NCBI GenBank assembly: GCA_039545335.1
Contig: BCIN01000011.1
Coordinates: 186,001 to 250,000 of the forward strand
Length of the DNA stretch: 64,000 nucleotides
Direction of reading: 5' to 3'
Source: Kondoa subrosea
Lineage: Eukaryota
Below are positions 33,448 through 62,632 of the stretch, in pieces. The position numbers were made by a program, and so were the translations under genes. The notes under the pieces are model-generated. The model did not search any database. It saw only the letters and a list, made by a program, of their open reading frames with translations, and was not told the origin of the DNA. Position 1 is the first letter of the stretch. Every line of letters starts with the position of its first letter.

Positions 33448-33656
33448 ACGAGTTGTGACAGCTTCAGGATGTGGCAGATCGACTAAATACTGTCATTTTT
33501 GACGTTAATGACCTTTTCGATTATACCATACCGCTGTCGAGGATCTATCAATTTCTTACATAAGCATCTTCACTTTTCAGAAACAGCTCACACTAAACAT
33601 CGCCGTACTTACCAAGGATAGGGTCGAGTATAGCTGGATATCGATATGGTATCGGG

Positions 33657-33680
33657 GAAAGAAAGAAAGAAAGAAAGAAA
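33657..33680. repeat. (GAAA)6 microsatellite
   Basis: Direct reading of the sequence. Confidence 0.9.
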
Positions 33681-33815
33681 GCGGAAATCCAGAAACCTGG
33701 AAATGCGATTCGGACGCAGCATGACAATTTGAGATTTGGCAATCAACAAATGAAGCGGGAAGAAAAGTAAACATGAAGGGAATACATGCATGGATATGGT
33801 ACAGCGGGTAAAGGA

Positions 33816-36800
33816 TCATGATAATTGCCCGGCGACTGAAAAAATACATCAGAAAGAGAATCTCGATACGGAAAGTACTGACAATCCTCCAAGAACTCAA
33901 TTGCTTCTTCAGCAGTCACTCCATCATTGCCAATATCTTCTTCATCAGTAATCAAACCCAAAGTCGGCGTAGAACGCATGATATGACTTTGCCAGAAGGT
34001 GTTGATCTTCTCTGATTCCGGCCGCAACTGCTTGAGTTTTCGAAGAAAGGTGTCTGTTGTCGTATATGTCAGACTTATCATTAATCAACAAGCAGCATAC
34101 GCACTGTATTGAAGAGTTTCCTCTTCTTCCGGCGCGAAATTTCTCACAGTGCGCAAGCATCGGACCGCCAGATCGTTCCTCTTTCCACCAAAATTCGTGA
34201 CTCTTGCAGCTTCGGCTCCTTCCATGCCAAGCATCTTGCCAACAAATCGCAACACTGAAGAAGCCGTAAGCTTTCGTTTGACATGGCCAATCTCATGAAC
34301 TTACAATCACGAACAGCTTCTTTAGTCATTTTTGCGTTTTTCGGCGCAACCAATTTCTCAAAATCCCTATAGAATTCCGTTGCAGCGAAATTCGACCTCA
34401 AAATCGAAGAACATACTTTATTGGATCTTCAGCGCCGACGAAACCAGTCTGTTCAGCTTTGAGGTCAATATCCATAGGAGTGACTTTCGGTTTCGAGCGA
34501 GGTGGTCGAGGTCCATCGTCTTCCGAGGCAGTCTCATCATCTGTATCTTCATCACTTGCTTTCCTCTTGAGCGAAGACTGGTCTAGAAGAGTAGATGTCC
34601 CCGAGCGAGGTAGAGGCGGTGGCGACGGTCGAGCAGTGAAGGCTGTATCATCTTCGATACCGCCGAAAGCATCGAAATCAATTTCCCCTTCGAGGTCATC
34701 TGGTCTGATGTTCTTGTTTTTGCCTCGATTGGAGACTTTGATCGGTACTGTCAGAAGAACGACCGCGCATCAGCGGAAACTTGACACCTGAATGTTCCCC
34801 TGACCTCGCTTGACGTCCAATTCTTGAGTCAGTTTCTCGAGCGAATCTTTCGCCTTTTCAAGTACTGAATCAGGAGTCGCGGCATACTTTGTAATTTCGG
34901 GGTGAGGTGGAGGCAGAGAGGTATCGTTTGGATGATTGCGTCGATACTGAACAGCAGCCGCAACATTGTGAATAGCAGGGTTGTAAGAATCTTCGCATTC
35001 GAACCAAGGTCCAAGTCGTCTTATCATATAGATCAATTTTGCATATCATTCAATTGAATGTGGGGACTCACTCTTCGTCATCTCCTTCTTCAGCGACGCA
35101 ATTCTCCAAATCCATATCATCGACAAATTCAGACATGGCCAATAATTGTTTCTCAGTAGGAATTTGCTTGTGCTCGACTACTTCTTTTCCAGTCCGGGAC
35201 CGCAAATTGGTCAAGCTAGGGAAATTCTGTTTCCTGTTATCTTCAGCAAAAGGTAACTAGAAAGCTCATCAGAATACCAATATTCACAACTCGCTCGAAC
35301 AACATACCTGAACAAAGACGCAGTATTCATTCCAAGTAGGAGGAGTGTCTTCATCCGCGCCTTCGGGTAAAGGTACTTGTTCTCTTCTTGCAATCAGTGC
35401 ACCCATCTTTGTAGCGTTAGAACCTTTGGAGCTGATGTAACGAACGATAGCGAAGAATTCCTTGACCAGCAAAGCGTTGACGAAAGCGGAAAACATCGTT
35501 TGACCTTTCCCACCGGCTCCCCACATGTAATAAGAATCGCCCAGGAGAATATCTCTAGGTAGCTATCCAGACCATATCCAGACCATATGAGCATGATATA
35601 GTACAAATCCAAGGATTCAACGTAGACCTACCAAGCTCAATTTAGTCGAACCCAAGAACTCAAATCCTGGAGTTTTCTGAATTTCCAAAACGTTTGCATC
35701 GACCGATTCCATTGGTACTCTCGTTCCACCATACTTGTAAGCTCTAGTAGCTTCAACATTCTGATCAACTCTTTCCAATCGTTTCCCATCCTCATCTTCA
35801 TCTTCTTTCGGTGGGTTAAGCCTTCTTTGAACTTCGCTTGCTGCTCTTTTGTTTAATTCTGCTTCACTTGCTTTCAATTGTCCAGGTTGAGGTTGAGGAA
35901 CGTAGTATCGTAAATTAGTCTTTTTCACTTCTACTGAATCTTTATCCATCAAAGGTGCTTCTTCATCTAGATCCATTGAATGATCCATAGGTTGAGTGTA
36001 AGATTGCATAGATTGACTTTCTCCACCTCCTAAAGTATAACCTTGACCCCAAGAATGTGAGAATTGAGATTCAGCATCTTGAGCTGCGAAATCTGATGTG
36101 GAAGCAGTAAAAGCAGAATAAATCGCTTCTAAAGTCGATTGTGAAGGCATTCGACTTAATCCATAATTATCTGGATTGGTTGCGCTCTTGATCTTGTCGT
36201 TTCGAGAAGGATCAATAATTCCAGGTACTTTTTTACCTTTAGGTAAATCTTTGGTAGAAAGTTTTTGGGCAGTTTTAGCAGAAGCTTTAGCAGTCGCTTT
36301 TTTCCAATGCACTGGGATTTCCAAACAGGTTTCCGGGTCATCTTTGTCACCGATTCGAAAGGTGTAATTCTCAGCACGAGAGGCGACAGTTCGGACTTGT
36401 GGACCTGAGGCTTGGATGAGAGCTCGTTCGAGATTACCGATGATGGCTGGCGTCTTCATGCTTTTAGCTAATGCAGTCAAGTGTTCTTCATTGTTGCGCT
36501 GTTATTGCAGATTGAGTATAACTCCAGTAATACGAGACTAGACGAACCTTGTCTGCAGACTTTCTCTTTTGCGTAAAGCCTAACACATCATCGTCAAATT
36601 CAACGCCTCTATCACTTTGCTCAGTGAAGTATAGATTGAGAAATGAAAGACAATCTTACACAACAGTCAATTCCATTGCCATCTTGTCGAGCTGAGAAGT
36701 AGTAGTCTCTACATCGTCTTCTCCCCACTCAGTAGGTGCTTCACCATCTGTGATGAGAATGATGTTCATTTTGTTCTTCCTCTCGCCGATCTTGTGTTTC

Positions 36801-40610: not shown

Positions 40611-42755
<2,145 letters not shown>

Positions 42756-42889
42756 GTTTGGGGGAATAAGAGAGAAGAAGAAGAAGGGGAATTGGAGGGT
42801 TTTCTGTCTCACACTTTCGTTTGTATTGTATAAAGCGCACATTGATTATTGTTTCTTCTTTCTCGTGCATTGCATTTTGGCATTTACTA

Positions 42890-44086
42890 CTACGACTTGC
42901 GTAACAATCCTACTAATTCGCTCTGCAAACCTTGACGTTTCCGACCCTCATCTAAACCTTCCATTGATCGCAAATCATTAACAATATCTCTCGTCTTGTG
43001 CAAGTAGACCTCCTGTCGCATTACGGACACTAACAATCAGTACAAATTTGATTGCCACAGACCCGTGCGCCGACCTGCAAAGCGCTCCTCATCTTGAGTT
43101 CCTGTTCTTCAATATAGCGACCAATATTAGCAACATGAGGATTAGGTAAAGTCATATCCAAAGTCGCATCCTGTTCGTTTTGCCTAGTCAAACTTCCACC
43201 TAATTCAATCTTGTTTTGATTCTCGTTTGAAGGAGTAGTATGAGAAATGTGAAGCATGACTGTTGAAGTTAATTTGTAATGCGCTGTTCTACCACGTTCG
43301 GTAGCTTCGAAAACATGAATCGAATCCCAAGATCCAGAGCGAGAGGAAGTTGAAGTTGCTGTTTGAGTAGGAGGAGCATGTGCTATATTAGCAATGATCA
43401 ACAGGATTCGGAATAACCAAAAGAAGAAGCAAATGTACTCTTTTGGAGAAGGACTACGCCTGCGAAAGAACCTTCCTCGTCCAGATCCCATAGGTAGACA
43501 GATGATATGCCGCCTTCATAGTACCTACCTCCTGAATGAGCAAACAAGCCTTAAGCAATAATTCGAGGGGAGCACTTACATATCTCTGTATACATCAAAA
43601 GCTTCATTCGCAGCTTGTTCTAGCTTCCTCAACTTCTCTGAAGGTTGCGTCCCATCAGGTAATGGTGGATCATACTCGTTTGACCAAGGTGATCTATTCC
43701 ATTACAGTCAGCGCATGATCCCCCTTTCCCTTGCGCGTGCAAACTAACCTATAAGAGTCCCCATCTCTGTTGTAATCGCAAACAAGGTAGGACTTTGCAG
43801 CTTTGGGATCATTCTTAATCTTTAAAGGTTGATCAACAGAAGAAAGGATGTCATCTGCCAAATCTGGGCAGAGCGACACTAAGCTAGCCAAGTTCTCTTC
43901 TATGTCTTGAGGTGGTAAGCGTCGACATATATCTAGGAAACAGCAAAGTCAATGCGTTGAATCATTCCATGCATCTCTCTCGGCAAGAGAGCTTACCTAG
44001 AATGCTGTTCAAGTGTAGCCCTGACAATCAGAGACTGTTGTCTGTCTGGTTTGGCCATGTACTGACCAATCTAATTGAGATGCCAT
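42890..44086 (-). CDS. CAP2: F-actin capping protein beta subunit
   Basis: [59 protein letters not shown]. Confidence 0.96.
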
Positions 44087-44290: not shown

Positions 44291-45316
44291 CTAGCATTGG
44301 CATAAGTCTATTTGTTCTCCTTCTTCACTGGTACAAACAACCAACTCAATCCTATCAGAGCTTTCAAAACACCGCCTATCGTTAAAGCTATATACGGGTT
44401 GAAGTGATCATCTCTGTTTCCGCATGTCAGTGAAGGCTTCATTATAAGATTCAAGAGAGACTCACGCTAGTTTCCCTATCAGCCCTCCTGTTGCAACAGC
44501 AACTAATGCCAATGCGCGAATAAATCGATCTGGATTCGCTTTGATTGCAAAGAGGTTGTTGTCTGCTGCTAATGAGGACCAGACGGAAGTAAGGACCTGT
44601 GAGAAAATTGTACAATGTCAGTCGAGTAAAGCGACAACAGAATACAGTGTACTCACGACTGTAGTTTGAAATGTTGTAGCTAGCTTTTGCGCCATGATAC
44701 ATTGAGATCCCATAGCTGTTGCTAGTAGAACGAACGCTATTGATCCATCTGTACTTCTCCAAGAGATATGAGATGTTGCTGGAAATACAACCAATCAGCT
44801 TTATCCCTCTTTCCTAGCGAGGATGAATCTACGAGATAAGAACAAGAGCAAAGCAGCAAGCAATTGCAACACCGCTTGAGCCAATGTAGCCAAACATAAC
44901 CATTTCGGACTCTTTTCTTTCCCGTAAAATGAGCCAAGTCTCCCAGTCAAGAAAGCGCCAAAACCAAAAAAGAGGAAGACTAAAGCACGTTGTCCATCTT
45001 CTATTCGAGCTGTACCTTGAAACAAAGAAGGGAGAGCCATTGCTAATTGAACACTGTTACCTGAAGTTTGATGCATAAGTACTTGTGTAAGAAAAGCACC
45101 GAAGGGAAGGAAGGAACCAGTTTGGAAAGCTATCCATGTTTGTGCTCGAGAATACGTGACAGCATCCGATATGCCCACAGTCAGACAAAGCAGGGCTAAA
45201 GGGAGAGTAGCTTTGTTTCCATCGATAGGTAAATTGCGATCATAGCTTCCTGAGCTCGACGCTTTCGGTTGATTCGCGGAAGAAGGCAGGAGTGGATCTC
45301 GTTCGTTTGCAGGCAT
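44291..45316 (-). CDS. DUF1275 (YoaK-like) multi-pass membrane protein
   Basis: Spliced motifs GISDAVTY..AFQTG|NSVQLA, FGFGAFLTG, AMGSQC, TTV|VLTSVW; about six hydrophobic helices. Confidence 0.8.
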
Positions 45317-45490
45317 CTCAGCAGCAAAGAAGAACGCGGTTATATAAAGACCGATCAAATGAGCAAATCTTTGACAAATCTCCGCATTTGTTGGAATTGC
45401 ATGCTTTGCGAGGTTTGGTTAGCATCCGTGACTTGTTAGGCTTTCGCTTTCTCTACCTTTCTTCTATCTGTCTTGAACAATTCCGATAGG
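45317..45490. promoter_or_regulatory. Putative bidirectional promoter between the DUF1275 gene and the oxalate decarboxylase
   Basis: 174 bp between divergent ATGs; TATATAAA at 45341-45348; CAAAT at 45356, 45364 and 45375, and inverted at 45386. Confidence 0.5.
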
Positions 45491-47918
45491 ATGAAGCTCC
45501 TTCTCTTGCTCGCTGCGATCTCAATATCTGCACTTCCACTCGCTCCACGTTCTCAAATCAACCAATTGACTTTCGTAGACGGTGCTATTGAGACTCGTTT
45601 GTATCCTAAAACTTACAATACCGATGAAATCCCTTCTGCTCCTCTTGAAGGCAACCCAAGCTATTTTGGTGATCCTACTTGGAGTAAGAATCCGGTTGCA
45701 GTAAGAGGAAAGAAAGGTTCTAGTGTTCTCGGACCTCAGAATAGAAGATTGGATAGGATGAATGCGTAGGTTCCTCATATGGCAAACGAAAGTGAGGACG
45801 ATATATATACTTATGTAATCTCGGATAGTGATTCTCTGGCTCCTCCTTCTACGTATGTTCCGCTCGTGGGAAATGGAGATGAAGACTCTGATCATATCGT
45901 AGCGATCATGGCAAAGTCCCCAACGCTAAATGGCCTGTGAGGAATCCCTCTATGATATATGCTTTGGTATATTCAGCGATTGGACCTTCTCACAGTATGG
46001 CAACTCCCACAATCGTTTGAGCGATGGAGGGTGAGTTTGCTTGCGCGCGTGCGCTACTAGATTGCACGCTCATGTATTAGATAGATGGGCTCGTCAGCAG
46101 AATCAACAAGTCTTGCCAATTGCTACCGAAGTATGCGATGCTCTCAAATTCCGTAAGACTGATTCTCATCGTATTTCTGTCCTTAGATGGCAGGTGTAAA
46201 CATGCGACTGGAGAAGAATGCAATCCGAGAACTTGTGAGCCTTTTACTGTATTATGCTTTAGCGCTATAATCGAGCACACTCTATCTAGCATTGGCACAG
46301 AGCTTCTGAATGGTCTTACATGATCTCTGGTAGCGCTATAGTCACTGCTGTCGATCCTCAAGGTCGCAATTTCATCGAAGAGGTCAATCAGGGTGATGTG
46401 CGTGCTCAATAATGGCTGTTGGCATCGAGATACTGATGTGACTGTTATAGCTTTGGTATTTCCCTGCCGGTGGCACGTTCTTCGTGCTCGTCACCATAGG
46501 AGAGAAGAAGCTCATTAGGCTGAACAGTCCCTCACTCTATTCAAGCAATCGGTGATGATCCAAATGGATGCGAGGTAGGCATATACCTTTCCTCTGCAGT
46601 ATACAGGCTAATGGATCTCTCTCAGTTTATCCTGGTTTTCGACGATGGCAAATTCGGTCAGTACCTGACTGAGACGTGCATGGTCCTTGTATTGATTTCT
46701 ACTCAACTTGCTCAGACGAGAACGAAACCTTCTTGTAAGTTTGAGCTACCAAATTGATCCGCTTGATTGCTGACTTCGCATCTTGTACAGACTGGTGACT
46801 TTCATTGAAAACTCCTGCAATATGTATCGTTGAGTTGAATCTTATACTACAGACTGACTGGCTCGCTCGAGTACCAAAAAACGTTCTTCGCAAATCTTTC
46901 GGCTTCTCAGATGCATCTCAAGCCTTTGACAAGATCCCAGGGGAAGAAGTGAGCATCACTTTTCCATCTAACTTTGTTCTGTGTACCGACATATGTACAG
47001 CTCTATATTTTCAGGGGAAGTGAAGCAGCATCAGTAGCCCAGCAAAAGATTAAATCACCTCATGGAGTAGTCCCAGAACCTTACGTTCATAAATTCAGTA
47101 CTCAACAGAAGATGCATTTCGATGGAGGCTGGTACGTCATTCTGGGGACTCTTCCTTCAAGAAATACTAAGATGATGCGGATACAGGGTCAAGATTGCTG
47201 ATTCTACCAATTTCAAGGTTTCAAAGACTATCGCTGCCGCTGAAGTTATGCTACACCCTGGCGCTATCAGGGAATTACGTGAGTCCATGCATCCACCGAT
47301 CATAGGGCTAGCTGAGACAGACTAGACTGGCACCCTGATGCCGACGAATGGGATTTATATCTCGTCAGTAGCTGTCTTGTCTCAGAATACAGTCGTCTGA
47401 TGCATATCGCAGTCCGGAACTACAAGAGTAGGTGTATTCATCGGTAGTGGAAAGTAGGCTCAAACAGCATCAGCCTGAAAAGCATGGCTGAAGTCATTTT
47501 CCTTCAGCGCCCATACTTTCAACTTTGAGGCTGGTGATGTCGGCTACTGGAAGCAGCAGGTGAGTTATACTATATCCCCCTGCTGCCTGTTGACTTATGG
47601 ACTGTTAGAACGGTCACTATGTTGAATGCCTCGGTCCAGAGCCATGTCGTTTCCTGGAATGCTTGAATGTAAGCATCTACTGTTGGTGCAAGACAGAGCT
47701 GACGATTATGTGATAGACCGACAAGTACTCGGATGTCTCGCTCAGCCAATGGCTGGCCCTCACTCCAGTCCAACTGGTTGCGGATCATTTGCGTGTGTCG
47801 AATGAGACAATTCAGAAGTTCAGCAAAGGTGCGCAATCTCCATTACCAATATGAAAGAGGCTAATCAGCGACTGCAGAGAAACCTGTCTTGCGTAGCGGA
47901 AGCGTTGAAATCAGCTAA
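45491..47918 (+). CDS. oxdC: Secreted bicupin oxalate decarboxylase (OxdC family), ~21 exons
   Basis: Signal peptide. Spliced motifs GGWARQQN, MAGVNMRL, IRELHWHRASEW, LWYFPAGVPHSIQ, LVFDDGKFDENETFLLTDWL, IRELHWHPDADEW, GHYVE, DVSLSQWLALTP. Confidence 0.93.
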
Positions 47919-50670: not shown

Positions 50671-53108
50671 ATGTCGCAGCCGGCTCATATCACCAAACTC
50701 ATTACGCTGCTCAACGTAGCAAATGCTCGACCTGCTAATCTCAAGCGAAACCGACCTGAATCGCATGAGTTCTACAAAATAGCGAAAAGAGCAAGATTAG
50801 CAGATCTAGTGACTGCTCAAGCGGAGATACAGCAAAAGGAGGTCAAGGAAGTCAAGAAAGCTACAAAGGAACAGCTGGAAGTAGCCGACGCTGATCTGGA
50901 AGCTCAAGGTTAGCGATTCCAAAAATGTTCGCAAGATCTAGTATTGATGCAAAGACAGCAGAAGAAGAGACAGACGATGCTTACAAAGTTCATTTCGCTC
51001 CTGAATCAGAATTACTATCAGCTACTGCTCTTGCTGCCGTGAAAGAAAGTGTTTGGCAAACATCAAGTACGGAGATTGAAGGTTTAGGCAAAGTACAATT
51101 GTCCTCTGTCGCTCAGCTACAGTCTACGGCGGAGTCGAAAGTAAGCTTGCGCAGCCTCAGATGTCACGGCTGGCTGACGTATGACTCACAGATCAATCCG
51201 AAGCTTCTGGCTAAGCTACAAGCACACCTCGCAAAACAAGGCGAAGGTATGTCCGTTTAACAACCTTTGGTCTCCTGCTCAATCTTCTGCAGAATCGATA
51301 CCGACTGACTTAATAAAAGAAGTTGGCTCATATAAAGATCTCTTCCATCCACATGTTTCGCTGGAAGAACATGACAAGCTCCGTTCAATCATTGCCCTGC
51401 ATGCAATGAACCATATCATCAAGTGAGTATTGCAGCGAGACAACGCGATTGAGTCTCATACTCGCTTTCTCATTTTCGCAGAACCAGAACTCGCGTGCTG
51501 AAGAATAACGAGCATCTAGCACATCATGCAGCAGCAGAGAAGGCAAAAGAACCACTACCAACTTTACCAGATACGCGGGATCAAGGTTTCACTCGACCTA
51601 AAGTCTTGATTCTTTTACCTTTCCGAAACTCCGCAACAACTTGGCTGGATCTTCTTTCTACCCTATCACTAGCTACATCGATCGAGAACCATGCTCGGTT
51701 GTTATCCGAATACACTTTACCTGAAGATTCGATTGATAAACTTGCTCAACCTGATGCGAGTTCCAAATACCCTTTGGATCATATCGCTACTTTCAAAGGA
51801 AACATCGACGATTCTTTCAGATTGGGTATCAAGATGAATAGAAAAAGCTTAAAACTGTTTACGGAATTTTATTCGAGCGATATCATTTTAGCGAGTCCTT
51901 TAGGTTTGAGGAAATCGATCGAAGCCAAAGGAAAAGAAGCAGAGGGTGAAGCTGATTTCTTGAGTTCGCTTGAATGTGTTGTGGTGGACCAAGGTGAAGT
52001 TATGGGTATGCAGAATTGGGAACATTTACAAGTCAGTCCAGATGAATAGCTGTAGTGACTTGCTCACTTTGGCTGTTATATGACTGACAGTTCGTCTTTG
52101 ATCACTTGAACAAGATTCCGAAAGAAGCGCATGGATGTGATTTCGCTCGTGTGAAACCATGGTATCTCGATGGAAAGTAAGTATATTGCTCTGCATCCAC
52201 ATTTGACACAGCTAACATTATTGCTGAAGGGCATCAAATCTACGTCAAACTATCTTCCTCTCTTCTTATGAAACTCCAGAAATGCGATCTCTCTTTCGAA
52301 CTGACTTCAATAATGTAGCTGGCAAACTTCGAGTAATAGCAGAAGAACAAGGAGTATTACAACATGTGCGAAGAGGAGTGCAGCAAGTCTTCAATCGGTT
52401 CGATGCGGATGAAGCAGAGGAAGAAGATGAAGCGCGTTATCAAGCTTTCATTACCCGAGTAAGTGATCTCTTCTGATCGATATCTGTCGTAGCTTATCAG
52501 ATTTCTAGACTCTCCCTGGATTGCTCAAATCTGCTGTAGCTTCAGCTGGTCACACACTCATATTCGTTCCATCATACTTCGACTTCCTTCGGGTGAAAGC
52601 TTACCTACGAACGATTGACGATCTAGAATATGCTTGCATCTCAGAGTGAGCGGTTGATCTCCTTCCTTCGAAAGCCTGTTGACCGTTTTAATCTCACAGA
52701 TACTCCTCGAATTCGGAAATTGCTAGAGCAAGAAACTCTTTCTTGGCTGGCAAACTACCCTTCTTGGTTATGACTGAGCGATTCCACTTCTTTAGAAGGT
52801 CAGTGGATGCCTTTCTCTTCAGCTTTGTTCTGATGAAAATGGGAACCATTTTTGACAGATACCGAATCCGCGGGGCTCGCACTCATGTCTTCTACGCTCT
52901 ACCCGAGCACGCAATCTTCTATCAAGAAATGCTCGCTCTGCCATTCGAAGAGGTTCCGAACAGCAAGTATGAGATAGCGGACGAATCCGAGGTTTCAAGC
53001 CAAGTCCTCTTCTCCAAATTCGATCTACTCAGGTTAGAGCGTATAGTGGGAAGAAAGAATGCAGTGAAGATGCTCGGTGCGGAAGAGGAGCGCTTCAGGT
53101 TTTCGTAA
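50671..53108 (+). CDS. UTP25: U3 snoRNA-associated protein Utp25 (DUF1253/DIEXF)
   Basis: [72 protein letters not shown]. Confidence 0.95.
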
Positions 53109-54242: not shown

Positions 54243-56064
54243 CTATTCATAGGCTTCTCCCATATCAAAACCTTTCAGCATATCTTCAATTCCACTATCT
54301 GCTCGAGTAGAACCACTCCTCTTCAACCCTTTCTTTGCTGATCGTTTTTCTATCCCATTCTTCGCTGCGTGAGGGAAAAGATCTCCCCAATGACATTTCC
54401 GAGCATCTGAATAAGCTTGTTTGCCTTGAGATTTTGGAATTGTGAATCGCTCAATATCGCCTGTCCGGAACACTCTGTCAGCTGACTGTACAGCAAATAA
54501 GAAGATACGATCACGGACCTGATGATGCACAAACATCGAAAACTACATGACCTGATCTCTTCATCGGAGGAGCCACAATTCGAGGCCAAGAAAAGGCTTC
54601 GGTTCTCATTTCTGCTGTTGCTACTTCTGCGTCTTCTTCGATGCTGGCTGAGTTTGCGAGAGGTATTTGGTCAAAGACCGGCCGAAGATCTGAAGGCTCT
54701 TCAGGTCGGAGATGGAATGCAAGAGGGTTTACCGAAGGTGAAGAAGGATAAGAAGAAGGAGAGAGCGGACCTGACTTAGTCATTGTTTCTGCACTAATGG
54801 TATGCGAAGAGATTGGACGAGCACCGCGACGGAACACAACGTAAGAGAATTTGCTATCTTCTTCTCCGCCTGTTGTGTGCTTCGTCTTGCGTAAGAAATC
54901 AGGCCGTTCCACTGCTGAAGTATTAAAAAGAATTGGAAGACAAGAGATGGCATTACATACATCTTTGACTGAAATGACAGAAGCTATCTGCGAAACGAAG
55001 AGGACAAGGTTTCTCATGCGAGCACTGATCATTAATTCAGCCCAAGATGAATTAATGCAGGAAAGTACAAAACTGACCGGCGCTACAATATGACATTCTC
55101 CCTTTGCAAACTTTAACAAATGATGCCTAGCTTCCGCTATCAACCCAAACCCAGCTGGTGTACCCCGATCAATCAAAACAACCAGTTCTGACCCACTCTC
55201 CCACATCTTCTCGAGCAGTTTCTTCCTTTGATCAGGATGCCGAATGTCGCTCAAAGTATAAGCAGCAATCGCAATCTGACCAGATCCACCGGTAGCTAAA
55301 GCAGCCGTATCCGGATTTGAGAAACTCGTCTGATGTAACTTTGTTTGCAAACCAGGTCGAAGTGCTTCAAGTAATTGAGTAGATAAGATATGCATTGGTC
55401 GAATTTCATCCAAACCAACATAGTACCTTAAATCAGGCCAAACTGATTTAGCCGCCCATGCTGCACTAGCTGTACCAGAACCCCAATCGACAAGTTTGTT
55501 AGGTTTCCAATCATCAGCTTCTGTTCTTTGTCGAATTTCATTCAAGACTCTATAAGTTGAGGCATAAATTGAAGGCATAAGACCAGCAGCGTAAGCTAAA
55601 GATACATCTTCGTTATAAGGTGGAGAAGTCTTTTTGGGTCGAGGATCTCTAGAAGTGCCTTTGACTTCAGCTGCGATTCTTTTGCTTGATTCACTTGATG
55701 AAGCTCTGAGATGAGCATATAGAGCCAGAGCATCCAGTCGAAGCTTCTTCTTGTCCGCGTCTGTTCCAACCTCCAGCTCAGCTCGAATTCTGGCTCACGC
55801 AACGATTCTCGATGTACCTGCTATAAGGGAAGACACGATATCCTGCAGCTCTTGAGGTAATTGTATACTGCCTATTCTACAATCTCCATACAAAGCAGCT
55901 TGAGATCGGCGAGAAACACGAGCAGGCAGTTCCAAATCATCTTGTTCTTCAGAAGCGACATGTGGTATACCCTCGAAAGCAGAGTTAACGGGTTGCACAG
56001 TCTCTAGCGATCGAGCTCTGGTGGAAGCAGAGAAAGATCTGCTACTCAATCGCAAGATTTTCAT
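54243..56064 (-). CDS. RSM22: Mitochondrial small-subunit protein Rsm22/METTL17 (methyltransferase-like)
   Basis: Presequence, VDWGSGTASAAW, LIDRGTPAGFGLIAEAR, HIVAP, EDSKFSYVV, WPRIVAPPMKRSGHVVFDVC, YSDARKCHWGD. Confidence 0.92.
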
Positions 56065-56103: not shown

Positions 56104-58206
56104 TTAGGTCTCTTCGTCCGGGTCTTCGTCCCGCTCGCTGACCCTACTCAATCGATGCGGTCTATAATCGTCTAATGAATCATCCTCTTCTTGTAAATTC
56201 TTTCTACTGCCAAACCGAGATTTGAGCGATTCGAGTCTCATACTATCGGGTAAAGAAGAATAGAGATCTGATGCGCTGTAAAATCAGTGACCCAGCCTAA
56301 ATTCAATATGATGAAGTCAATTACATACCTTGAGATCGTTGTGTGAGAAAATATATAGGTAATCCAGCTAGCATGAAACCGAAACTTAACAGTGCTGCTA
56401 TGGGTGAAGAAGCGATTGGCATGAAGAGAAGGAATAGTGCAGTACAGGTGAAGATTATTGGAGTAGCCAGATATGTCTTGTACGGCCTATATGTACGTAC
56501 TCATGGTGAAACCATAAAACCGGTAATCACGAGTTATACATACCTTTCTAGGTCAGGTTCTCTAATCCGCAATACCAGTAAGCTGGAGACAGTCGCAAAG
56601 TAGAATGTCCAAGCAGAGATGGAGAAAAAGACGACCAGAGACTTGAAATCGCCAAAGAGAATCATTAGAAAAGTGAGAGCAAAATTGAGGAGAATCGCAT
56701 TGATTGGCGTTTCCCTTGTAGAGTGTAGTTTGGCGAAGATCTTGGGCAAGAACTTCTCTTGACCCGCTACGCAGATAAGGCGAGCGGTTGTATAGAGTCC
56801 GCCTGTCCTTTAGATCAGTGTGAATATGAGACTGAAAGGCATTGTAACTGACCATTCAAGGCTCCAAAGCATGACAAAGCAACAACAAGCGCTAGAAGTA
56901 GACCTCCGACAGGTCCAAAGATTGCTTTGCCGAAATCGAGTGCAACAGTGTTTGAATGGGCGACCAATTCTCGTGGTAGAACAATAAAGAAGGAAAGGTT
57001 TGCGATGATGAAGAGAAGTATCACAGCCGCTATCTACTAGCTGTGAGTGTTTTTGTCAGACCGAATAATAGGAAAGCGCACTGAAATATGTATAACCCGC
57101 GGTAAATCACGCGAAGTATTTGCCAACTCTGCCGCGACATAATTGACTTGATCCCATCCATCGAAAGCCCATAGACCAGAGTATAGAGCCAAAGCGTAAT
57201 TGCCAGGAGAGGTACTTGATCCAGCGAATGTATTCCCTCTTAAGCTTGAGGAAGCTTTCCCTCTTGCCAACTGCACTATTCCTGCCACAGCGACCAGGAA
57301 GAGTGCAAAGATCTTGGCAGTTGTTGTTACTACTTGCGTACGGCGCCCAAGAGTATTGCTGAGCATGTTCAATATACTGATTATTAGACATATTGAAATG
57401 GCTACGATCTTGATGACTGCTTGAGGAATAGCTTCCACCGATTCTTCCGACGCTAATGGCACACATCAGGTGAGAGGTCTTCTGAGCCAGCGAGACACTC
57501 ACATGCGGAGAAGGCAGTATGATAAAGCACTCGACACAGGTATTCGGCAGCTACAAGGGATATAATAGCGGCCTGTTCCTCAAGCTAAGCGACATTCGCT
57601 AATCTATCAGAAAGAATACTAACGCTTCCTGGCTAAGGTAAATGAGCTCTAAAGCGTGGCTCTTTTGCACTTCTCACTGACTTTCACAGCGGTGATTGAC
57701 GTCCAAGCATAGCAATAAGCTATCGCGGGACCAAAAGCGTATTGCAGATAGGCTTGACTTCCTCCATTTAGTGGTATAGCTGACCCTAATTCTGCGTACG
57801 AGCTAGCGCCCGTCCAAGCAAGTAATCCTCCAGCTACCCAAACCAATAGACTCGCTCCCACCGACTGTGTGTCCAACACAATCACACCTGGACTCGCAAA
57901 GATGCCTGATCCAATGATTACACCCGCATTGAGAGCGATGCCTCCAATGACTGTCAATGCCTTTGACTTTCCTGCAACATTTGACTCTTGTGATAAAGGG
58001 ATAGGAAGTAGATTTCGCGTGTATTCAAATGAGAAACGCGATAGTGTATTGCTGCGACCTCGACTGGGTCTTTCGCTTGATGTGGATTCGCTTAACAGTG
58101 CTTGACCTGCTTCATAGTCCTCATGCGTCGTCTCTTGCGGGTATTCCTTCACAGCTACAGAGTCCAGCTCAGTGTCATCGCGTTCACTTCCATCAGCAGA
58201 GGGCAT
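56104..58206 (-). CDS. L-type amino-acid transporter (APC superfamily, LAT/Mup-like)
   Basis: GVIIGSGIFASPG, SYAELGSAIPLNGG, YSGLWAFDGWD, SCFGALNG, TPINA. The last exon has two possible acceptors, so the 3' end is uncertain. Confidence 0.9.
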
Positions 58207-58658
58207 TGATTTGCTGCAGATGGTTGCATTAGACAGACGTACTATTGTTACAAGCTCATGCGAATTATGGAAGTCTCAAGCAACGAATGGCTAGGTGATC
58301 AAGCGATTGGTGCCGGCTGCACGGTAGTAATGTTCTCTCTAGTAATATCGCGTGAAAGGGACTCGCTCGAAAGGCAGTGAAGCCAATGAATTGACAAAGC
58401 TAGAGCCAGCCAGCTCCAAGTGTCAATGCTAGCCTGTCAAGCTCAGTAAGTTGCTGCAGCAAGACTGAGATCAGATGATTAGCGAATTTCCTCGTGAAAT
58501 GTACTTGAACTCACTGTTCGCCTTTTCTGCTACGTAAACTTTGATAACAAAGGCTTGATTTCAAGATTTGCAATCTTCATCAGAGGCGATACTACAGGAC
58601 CATTCCAAGATAAGCCGCTACGAGACGAGTGCTTTGGTCTGGCGCTCACCTAGCTAGG

Positions 58659-60822: not shown

Positions 60823-62632
60823 ATGGCATCTCGATCTATCATTCATCGCTTAATGCGAGCTTCGCAACACGGAGCTTGTCCATGCCATAGCTGTACTTCC
60901 AAGAGCTCAGCAGCTGGTATCACTGGCGCTGTTCAAGCTTTACACAGCAACGGAGCCAGTACTAGAGTCGCTACTCGGAATTTAGCAACTCCAGTCGAAG
61001 CACATGAGAAAGAGTATGCTTTCGAAATGGCTGCAAGTCAATTGAGATTCGGTCCTGGTGTGACTCGAGAAGGTGTGTATTCTTATTCGTTAAGGCATAC
61101 AACAGAATATTGAAAGAACCCATATGAAAGTCGGTATGGACTTTGCTAATTTCCAAGCTCGCAAAGTTGGTGTCTATACGGATCCAACAGTTCGACAATT
61201 GCTACCTATGCAAACTGCTATTGAATCGCTTGAAGCAAATGGGGTCCCTTATGAAATCTTTGATCAATGTAGAGTGGAACCCAATCAAGAGTCTTGGCAG
61301 CAAGCGATTGATTTCTCAAAGAAACACGATTTCAGTCACTTCGTACGTCCAATATGGTACCTGTGAACGAAACTGATACTAGTTTGATAAGTTGGCTGTT
61401 GGTGGTGGAAGTGTTATCGATACCGCAAAGGCGGCGAATCTGTACACTTGCTACCCTGATGCTGATTTCCTGGACTTTGTGTGAGTCTTGCAAGGACAAG
61501 GAACGAGCATTACTGAGCTCATTTTGCAGCAACGCACCAATCGGTAAAGGCAAATCGATCGACAAGCGTCTTCGACCTTTGATTGCTGTACCAACTACGG
61601 CAGGAACTGGAAGTGAAACGTGAGTAATGGTGTTGAATCTTGCATCTGTGCATAAGTCAAGACCATTGGGTCACAGGACCGGAACGGCCATTTTCGACTA
61701 TACCCCTCTTCTAGCTAAGACTGGTATCGCCAACAGAGCTCTCCGACCTCTTCTCGGTATTGTCGATCCTCTCAATACCGATTCCTGCCCATTAGCAGTC
61801 CATATTTCAAGCGGTCTAGATGTTCTCTTTCATTCTCTCGAATCCTACACCGCTATCCCATACAACGAAAGAACTCCTCGCCCATCCAATCCTCTGAATC
61901 GACCAGCTTATCAAGGCAGAAACCCAGTTTCTGATGTTTTCAGTTTATGGGCATTGAAAGAGACAGTCAAGCATTTACCTAGAATCAAGAACAACACGGA
62001 TGATAAGGAAAGCAAGACTCAAATGTTGTTGGCTAGTTCTTTCGCAGGTATTGGTTTCGGAAATGCTGGCGTACATCTATGTCACGGAATTAGGTAAGTT
62101 TCGATTCCACAGGCAGGGCAATTAAGCTGATGTTAGTGTTGCAGTTATCCTATTAGTGGATTGAACAAGAAGCTGGCCAATTACAAGCATCCCGGATATG
62201 TCGTAGATCATCCTATCGTCCCTCATGGTGTTTCTGTTGCTCTGAGTAAGTCTTTTCCGTTTTGATATCTAATGGTCACTTAAATCCTGTCCAGCCGGTC
62301 CTGCTGTTTTTGAATTCACTGCTCCATCAGCTCCAGATCGTCACAGAGAAGCAGCAGCCATCTTCAATTCTTTCGAACCGGATACAGTTCAAGACGATCG
62401 AATCCCAGATTCCGACATTGGTCAACTCTTGCATGATCGAATCGCGAGATTCTTGGTCGGTGTTGGTGTACCAAGAGGATTGAAATCCATTGGTTATCAA
62501 TCGGAAAACATCCCTGATTTAGTAAAAGGTACATTGCCTCAAAGAAGAGTATTGGATTTGGCACCTGGTATGAAGGGAAGTGAAGGTCAGGAAGAGTTGG
62601 CTGGTATCATTGAGAGAGCTATGAGCTTCTAA
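60823..62632 (+). CDS. ADHFE1: Hydroxyacid-oxoacid transhydrogenase (iron-containing ADH family, ADHFE1/HOT), mitochondrial
   Basis: [75 protein letters not shown]. Confidence 0.94.

Follow-up and report, generated by a model that had tools for sequence, protein, structure and literature searches.

Why does a gene for a membrane protein of the DUF1275/YoaK family stand head to head with a gene for an oxalate-degrading enzyme in the genome of a basidiomycete, and does the membrane protein serve the enzyme? The question is raised by a 64,000-nucleotide stretch of Kondoa subrosea DNA (NCBI GenBank assembly GCA_039545335.1, contig BCIN01000011.1, positions 186,001 to 250,000 of the forward strand), hereafter called the window and numbered from its first letter. 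In it a DUF1275 gene on the minus strand and a bicupin oxalate decarboxylase (OxdC) gene on the plus strand diverge from a common spacer of 174 bp (45317..45490, ATG to ATG). The reaction of OxdC converts oxalate and a proton to formate and CO2, and the original prediction, made from the letters of the window, proposed that the two genes form a co-regulated unit for the flux of oxalate or formate. A lone adjacency in a compact window cannot be judged against chance, and chance was therefore tested in other genomes. We found that genes of the same two families are neighbors in bacteria far beyond chance, which lends credibility to a functional tie between the two and to the core of the proposed link. 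The pairing in soil bacteria suggests oxalate, or the formate made from it, as the cargo of the membrane protein; a functional coupling of the two genes of the window is plausible, and we place our confidence in it slightly short of even.

The divergent gene pair of Kondoa subrosea

The DUF1275 gene (44308..45316, minus strand) comprises five exons in our splice model (45316-45118, 45060-44833, 44778-44657, 44596-44466 and 44413-44308, stop codon included) and encodes 261 amino acids (aa). Its first in-frame ATG is at 45316, as had been proposed, and its stop codon ends at 44308; the start of the locus, which had been set at 44291, thus lies 17 bp beyond the stop. Exon 1 alone matches the Pfam family PF06912 (DUF1275, also called YoaK or UPF0700; E 9.4e-11, 42.3 bits, cut-off 25.4), which confirms the family assignment made earlier, and the Kyte-Doolittle scan reveals six to seven hydrophobic segments, in agreement with a family of six-helix proteins of about 220-300 aa. 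The in-frame intron 45117-45061 (57 nt) was placed by comparison with the relative P0001, because P0001 reads uninterrupted across the conserved FQTGN motif; this protein, with 74.8% identity to the window model over 111 aa, is the closest relative found. The motifs of the family alignment, GxxDA, F(Q/M)TGN, MGxQ and TTxxT, appear in the window protein as VGISDA, FQTGN, AMGSQ and QTTVVLT. Relatives are few: when 1.84 billion representatives were searched exhaustively with HMMER, just 17 proteins reached E <=0.001, 16 of which match PF06912. Those with an organism name belong to Mycena, Wallemia and Favolaschia, apart from one whose record bears the label of a fern. Word-based homolog searches with exon 1 yielded nothing in one case and a single 126-aa fragment in another. 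Judged by its sequence, the window protein belongs to a eukaryotic branch of DUF1275, within which it is divergent.

The original prediction had also placed FpOAR, the characterized oxalate exporter of Fomitopsis palustris (PMC10576180, PMC3976251), in DUF1275, in which case the window gene would be its homolog and hence encode an oxalate efflux or resistance protein. Both are small fungal multi-helix membrane proteins tied to oxalate, and that placement is the sole basis of this explanation. Against it, FpOAR (BAJ10704.1) used as a BLASTP query is reported to retrieve the plant SNARE_assoc proteins HbOT1, HbOT2 and AtOT/AT4G09580, with which it has been aligned (PMC9738940, PMC10003554), and DUF1275 is mentioned in neither of these two papers. 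The reported relatives of FpOAR are thus of the SNARE_assoc (DedA/TVP38-like) type, whereas the window protein belongs to PF06912, and in Pfam scans SNARE_assoc (PF09335) is matched neither by exon 1 of the window gene nor by any of its 17 best relatives. With the family of FpOAR taken from those two papers, that placement is probably wrong, and we regard homology to FpOAR as very improbable indeed.

Residues 5-10 in the N-terminal tail of the DUF1275 protein (45290-45307, minus strand) read ERDPLL, an acidic dileucine-type pattern ([DE]xxxL[LI]). The relative P0003 has ERRPLL at the same place, and the pattern occurs there in two of the 14 eukaryotic sequences checked. Acidic dileucine motifs are sorting signals to vacuolar or endosomal membranes, and the pattern, if it is such a signal, bears on where the protein acts.

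The OxdC gene (45491..47918, plus strand) starts with the ATG at 45491, ends with the TAA at 47916-47918 and encodes 451 aa. The spliced model contains 21 exons (45491-45765, 45829-45852, 45903-45936, 45996-46030, 46085-46130, 46187-46234, 46290-46397, 46451-46472, 46528-46574, 46626-46656, 46716-46734, 46791-46794, 46853-46948, 47001-47131, 47187-47278, 47326-47363, 47413-47453, 47508-47559, 47609-47668, 47717-47828 and 47878-47918), separated by 20 introns of 47-63 nt within 2.4 kb. Over 459 columns the model shares 92.2% identity with P0028, a 459-aa protein encoded on a 1,527-bp JGI contig, and it is 56% identical to P0029 from Melampsora americana. Both relatives score far above the cut-off of the bicupin oxalate decarboxylase family TIGR03404 (533 and 506 bits, respectively, cut-off 254); for the window protein P0028 serves as a proxy in this comparison, its own sequence having been scanned by exon 7 only (Cupin_1, E 2.5e-7). 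The manganese ligands HxHxxxE and H are kept in the N-terminal domain (HWHRASEW, PHSIQ) and in the C-terminal domain (HWHPDADEW, GHYVE), and the lid glutamate is kept as well, with DENET aligned to SENST of 1J58. In Bacillus subtilis OxdC the lid glutamate (Glu162) is the proton donor and sets the decarboxylase apart from an oxidase. From its sequence features, the product of the window gene is predicted to be a manganese bicupin oxalate decarboxylase, as had been read from the open frames.

Two details of the splice model deserve mention. The 4-nt micro-exon ACTG (46791..46794), located between introns of 56 and 58 nt, was called because the frame needs ACTG and FLLTDWL then equals the sequence of P0028 and P0029, whose agreement is its only basis. 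The intron 46473..46527 is a probable GC-AG intron (donor GCACGT), which restores FPAGVPH as in P0028, a part of the cupin motif G-x5-P-x-G-x2-H; a GT donor 3 nt upstream would lose the glycine. The N-terminus of the protein, MKLLLLLAAISISALPLA, is strongly hydrophobic (about 22 aa, 45491..45556, hydropathy 2.0-2.65 over residues 1-18), and the N-termini of P0028 and P0029 are alike; by hydropathy, this segment is a probable secretion signal and the fungal enzyme is probably secreted. Compared with B. subtilis OxdC (1J58, 1UW8), P0028 aligns with 1J58 across both cupin domains (E 1e-128), with conservation of the HWHxxxE and H ligands in each domain and of the lid glutamate (FDDGKFDENETF versus FDDGSFSENSTF). 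The fungal protein differs in having about 70 extra N-terminal residues, including the hydrophobic signal, and the fungal gene in having its introns.

Pairing of OxdC and DUF1275 in bacteria

Metagenomes were scanned with a mixed alignment of fungal and bacterial OxdC sequences, which gave 594 confirmed loci, and the 80 best were kept. Seventeen of these 80 contain an open reading frame (ORF) for a DUF1275 protein, in every case above the Pfam cut-off. In 15 of the 17 the DUF1275 gene lies directly downstream of OxdC on the same strand, with gaps from -237 to +235 bp; one further copy lies 1.2 kb downstream on the opposite strand, and another is found 1 kb upstream, with a polysaccharide deacetylase gene in between. 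Among the 59 loci with at least 700 bp of downstream sequence 10 are linked, and 16 unlinked loci with less than 700 bp are not assessable. The background density of the family (seven matches in 10 whole genomes, about 50 Mb) predicts about 0.08 DUF1275 genes in the 539 kb of metagenome flanks, against the 17 observed.

The flanking genes vary from one linked locus to another (kinases, sortase, fumarase, LuxR, GAF-histidine kinase, MarR), and the G+C fraction of the linked metagenome loci ranges from 0.52 to 0.74, that of the Paenibacillales loci being 0.48; because flanks and composition differ, it is the pair itself that is conserved and not its neighborhood. In a FastTree phylogeny of 158 bicupins, where 28 rows are linked, 106 can be assessed and are unlinked, and 21 are not assessable, the state of linkage changes at least eight times, and the linked DUF1275 proteins fall into at least two clades. 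DUF1275 is the commonest downstream partner of OxdC. The next, among unlinked loci, is the YrvL regulator, with four of the 81 same-strand downstream ORFs of 127 unlinked loci, followed by EamA and Alginate_exp (two each) and FUSC/ALMT, DMT_6 and HPP (one each); in L042 and L044, which have a lid of the B. subtilis type, OxdC is followed by YrvL and not by DUF1275. Every linked bicupin retains the manganese ligands and a lid of the form SE[ND]xxTF. The linked bacterial enzymes have short N-termini devoid of signal peptides, and the two OxdC proteins with RR (twin-arginine-like) signals, L001 and L005, are both unlinked. By their sequences, the linked enzymes look like decarboxylases of the cytoplasm, which would need oxalate in and formate out.

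We also analyzed sampled bacterial genomes. When species genomes were scanned with the fungal OxdC alignment, six loci were found, none of them linked to DUF1275, and 60 further loci of about 20 kb each were taken from OxdC matches in samples of one bacterial phylum, order and class. All 66 genome-anchored loci were scanned with our own DUF1275 profile and then again with a wider one. The single linked locus (L010) carries three consecutive genes of the same orientation, for TetR, a short bicupin (TIGR03404, 377 bits) and DUF1275. Its DUF1275 protein has orthologs in 11 of the 301 genomes sampled from the order, each of them one of the 22 genomes that have two bicupin matches. In all ten Paenibacillales loci that were retrieved the bicupin adjoins a DUF1275 gene (eight loci) or a remnant of one (two loci). 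Nine of the ten share the whole 20-kb neighborhood with L010 and are therefore counted as one event; in L040 the bicupin and a DUF1275 remnant lie in a different genomic context. In three other genomes (G923, G805, G509) the DUF1275 gene is distant from the bicupins or on another contig. Thus, the OxdC-DUF1275 pair is a recurrent unit in some bacterial lineages and is absent in most others. For B. subtilis itself, "YoaK family protein", pelB_2 and oxdD agree in their pattern of presence (0/0/12) in a pangenome table, which is no more than suggestive (PMC12712070).

Some bicupin loci have features of their own. L011, a widespread high-scoring bicupin of Paenibacillales (TIGR03404, 574 bits), has FSDLNTL where B. 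subtilis OxdC has FSENSTF, and therefore the lid glutamate is missing; bicupins of this type may not be decarboxylases. In L142 (11170-12549) and L154 (1747-3210) the gene downstream of OxdC encodes an Alginate_exp-type outer-membrane channel. Genes for FUSC/ArAE/ALMT-like organic-acid exporters adjoin OxdC in L084 (3712-4632) and L094 (11143-12288), and one of these two loci also has DUF1275.

Predicted fold and dimer of DUF1275

TCDB classifies DUF1275 as family 9.B.143, with six transmembrane segments, a distant member of the major facilitator superfamily (MFS) without known function (PMC8154325, PMC7778945), and in the available text of the literature that names the family no function is assigned to DUF1275/YoaK. 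We modeled the Wallemia homolog P0009 from an alignment of 20 sequences and obtained an all-helical bundle (predicted local distance difference test score, pLDDT, 84; predicted template modeling score, pTM, 0.81). A Foldseek search of the PDB with this model gave nothing at E <=0.001, and the weak top rows (E >=0.02) were all MFS proteins. In a wide structural search all 50 listed top rows were of the MFS type, with Z scores of 9.9-13.4, the oxalate carrier OxlT (8hpj_A) being at rank 3 with Z 13.0, a root-mean-square deviation of 3.4 and 166 aligned residues; many others lie within 1 Z of it, and a Z of about 13 is attainable among helical bundles without kinship. At the level of sequence the match to MFS_1 is insignificant (best 23.3 bits, in P0002, cut-off 33.4). 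The model thus predicts that DUF1275 folds as one half of an MFS transporter.

A homodimer was predicted for P0009, with a score of 0.80 against 0.00 for the best of three controls, a contact agreement of at least 97% between runs and a partner pLDDT of at least 80. The mark applied here is reached by 21 of 30 proteins solved as one-chain pairs and by none of 23 solved as single chains; on eukaryotic proteins it is reached by 17 of 29 overall and by just one of the seven without an older solved relative. The predicted interface contains the invariant residues G47, G66 and F100 and the nearly invariant F63, G103 and G166, and the conserved polar residues of the family (the helix-1 Asp, F-Q/M-T-G-N, M-G-x-Q and T-T-x-x-T) also sit in it. 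This location is as expected of two halves around a central cavity, within the limits of a model whose success as a homodimer may reflect its likeness to solved MFS folds.

OxlT is an MFS oxalate:formate antiporter that serves the cytoplasmic decarboxylation of oxalyl-CoA, and it binds oxalate via Arg and Lys. In Oxalobacter formigenes, where it acts with the oxalyl-CoA decarboxylase Oxc and formyl-CoA transferase, it is a membrane carrier coupled by genes and function to an oxalate-decarboxylating enzyme, a close parallel to the arrangement proposed here, and in the model DUF1275 superposes on one six-helix half of 8hpj_A, with a dimer predicted. The two systems also differ: OxlT has twelve helices in two halves versus a single six-helix unit in DUF1275, and its partner is a thiamine diphosphate enzyme, that of DUF1275 a manganese bicupin. 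Furthermore, DUF1275 alignments have Asp as the only conserved charged residue, with no conserved Arg, Lys or His, and transport by DUF1275 is putative.

A proposed role and its alternatives

On these grounds we propose that a dimer of DUF1275 would be a small-solute carrier working with the decarboxylase and moving oxalate and/or formate across the membrane between enzyme and substrate. For the bacterial operons, whose enzyme would be cytoplasmic, this would mean uptake of oxalate and/or release of formate, the part that OxlT plays in the oxalyl-CoA pathway. For the fungus, with the enzyme in the secretory lumen or outside the cell, the exchange would be reversed: cytosolic oxalate would go out to the enzyme and formate would return, and the 174-bp spacer would drive the two genes. 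That DUF1275 is an oxalate and/or formate carrier serving OxdC, directed inward in bacteria and outward in the fungus, where the genes share a promoter region, is a possibility that we hold open at nearly even weight. More doubtful, and advanced only tentatively, is a general scheme in which DUF1275/YoaK proteins are half-size MFS carriers acting as homodimers, some branches of which carry oxalate or formate and have been recruited repeatedly beside the manganese bicupin, in several lineages of bacteria as an operon of two genes and, in a separate event, in this basidiomycete as a divergent pair.

Beyond the limits of the model given above, several observations weigh against the proposed role, the first of which concerns the conserved residues. 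A single conserved Asp and no conserved basic residue is odd for a site that should bind the oxalate dianion. It would suit an explanation in which the genes are coupled and DUF1275 supplies or balances something else, e.g. Mn2+ for the two metal sites of the enzyme, or protons for pH homeostasis. The Asp of helix 1 lies beside Thr, Asn and Gln; OxdC requires Mn in both domains, and the ligands are kept; delivery of the metal into the compartment of the enzyme would fit the bacterial cytoplasm and the fungal secretory lumen alike; and the OxdC reaction consumes acid, so that proton balancing is conceivable. The predicted fold, however, is that of MFS carriers of organic solutes, and Pfam recognizes DUF1275 only, with no known metal-transport motif. 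Moreover, in Acetobacter aceti a DUF1275 gene adjoins oxalate-catabolic genes in the region uctB-oxc-uctC-duf1275, whose decarboxylase belongs to the oxalyl-CoA pathway and is not a manganese bicupin, and this points to the substrate or product as the common element; the region is named in a methods passage that gives it no function (PMC3720670). We consider a role in supplying metal or balancing protons quite improbable. In our samples oxc (TIGR03254) was found in one of 151 and one of 401 genomes, at two loci neither of which has DUF1275, in a survey that scored three candidates per genome, is underpowered and has no bearing on the A. aceti observation. That region is also the nearest item to the OxdC-DUF1275 pair that full-text literature searches brought up (PMC3720670); in the main text of the papers covered they yielded no description of the pair itself, in line with what had been supposed. 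In Aspergillus niger a DUF1275 gene is among the 27 reported as up-regulated in a citT deletion strain that shifts to the production of oxalic acid (PMC8224569).

The bacterial record itself is uneven. No DUF1275 gene accompanies OxdC in 63 of the 80 best metagenome loci, and the pair is missing from 65 of the 66 bicupin loci anchored in genomes (25 of 26 and 40 of 40 in the two sets). In L039 and L040 (Paenibacillales genomes G679 and G663) decay has left DUF1275 fragments of 60 and 40 aa beside an intact bicupin. Conversely, DUF1275 is widespread, with matches in our Bacillus, Caulobacter, Lactococcus and Methanosarcina controls, in the last three of which TIGR03404 stays below its cut-off, and fungi have several paralogs each, four being listed for A. 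fumigatus (PMC3576715). With DUF1275 present in OxdC-free genomes and multiplied in fungi, the family is therefore not dedicated to oxalate.

The window protein is, in addition, remote from the bacterial members that are linked to OxdC. It falls inside a eukaryotic clade (support 100); its best bacterial matches are the unlinked L161 and L162 (E 1e-10), and with the exception of L156 (2e-4) the linked proteins are not detected by it. A search of the metagenome contigs with the fungal DUF1275 alignment gave 591 pattern matches, none of which was confirmed. The fungal OxdC proteins form a clade of their own at an unresolved fork of the bicupin tree. The possibility that the fungus received both genes together from bacteria was considered and rejected, since the fungal DUF1275 lies in the eukaryotic clade and matches unlinked bacterial members best. 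The bacterial evidence consequently bears on the family and not on the ortholog in the window, and with the fungal enzyme probably secreted and the linked bacterial enzymes free of a signal, the logic of feeding a cytoplasmic enzyme fails to transfer.

These points lend weight to the simplest alternative, namely that the two genes are neighbors by chance, in a compact genome that explains their adjacency, and that the window DUF1275 is one of the fungal paralogs and unrelated to oxalate. A secreted enzyme could reach external oxalate without a carrier. The surroundings agree with this: the region is eukaryotic, intron-rich and gene-dense, with intergenic gaps of 0-400 bp, and a Pfam survey of 107 open frames between 30 and 62 kb of the window identified a Ku70/80-like gene (33500-36500), a protein kinase gene (41500-42800), a gene for the beta subunit of F-actin capping protein directly behind the DUF1275 gene (43030-43950), and genes for UTP25 (51200-53100), Rsm22 (54500-55800), an amino-acid permease (56500-58300) and an Fe-alcohol dehydrogenase (61100-62100). 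Formate dehydrogenase, oxaloacetase and other oxalate genes are absent from these frames; there is no wider metabolic cluster around the pair, and the context is compact and housekeeping. Because the region is gene-dense and its neighbors are of the housekeeping kind, a head-to-head gap of 174 bp is ordinary here. The spacer must contain both core promoters and both 5' untranslated regions, and the motifs that had been singled out in it are indeed present, namely TATATAAA (45341..45348, plus strand), located 143 bp before the start codon of OxdC and 25 bp from that of DUF1275, and CAAAT in three direct copies and one inverted copy inside about 45 bp. They are not set apart by their frequency: TATATAAA has two copies in the 64 kb of the window against 0.94 expected, and CAAATCT has 20 against 17.8 expected and is not enriched, the local pairing of its two copies 11 bp apart (45364-45370 and 45375-45381, plus strand) alone being notable.

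The link was, furthermore, proposed only after the pair had been seen. Nevertheless, the later search for the same pairing elsewhere found it in the metagenome loci at the excess described above and, in addition, in a subclade of Paenibacillales, and it is DUF1275, not YrvL or any other family, that recurs most often downstream of OxdC. Taking both sides together, we regard a chance neighborhood in the window as unlikely, although by no means remote, and the functional link between the two families as supported by their pairing in bacteria.

Oxalate turnover matters in fungal wood decay and plant infection, in the cycling of metals and calcium in soil, and for engineered degradation or production of oxalate. 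Few oxalate carriers are known, namely OxlT, FpOAR with its plant relatives, and SLC26 (for the last, PMC11776485). If DUF1275 is a carrier that works with OxdC, this would be the first function for a DUF family found from archaea to fungi and plants, and the exchange of oxalate and formate known from OxlT would have a second, unrelated solution; the engineering of oxalate or formate would also gain a new and small part for export or import. The recurrent OxdC-DUF1275 pair thus offers a concrete transport hypothesis that is cheap to test.

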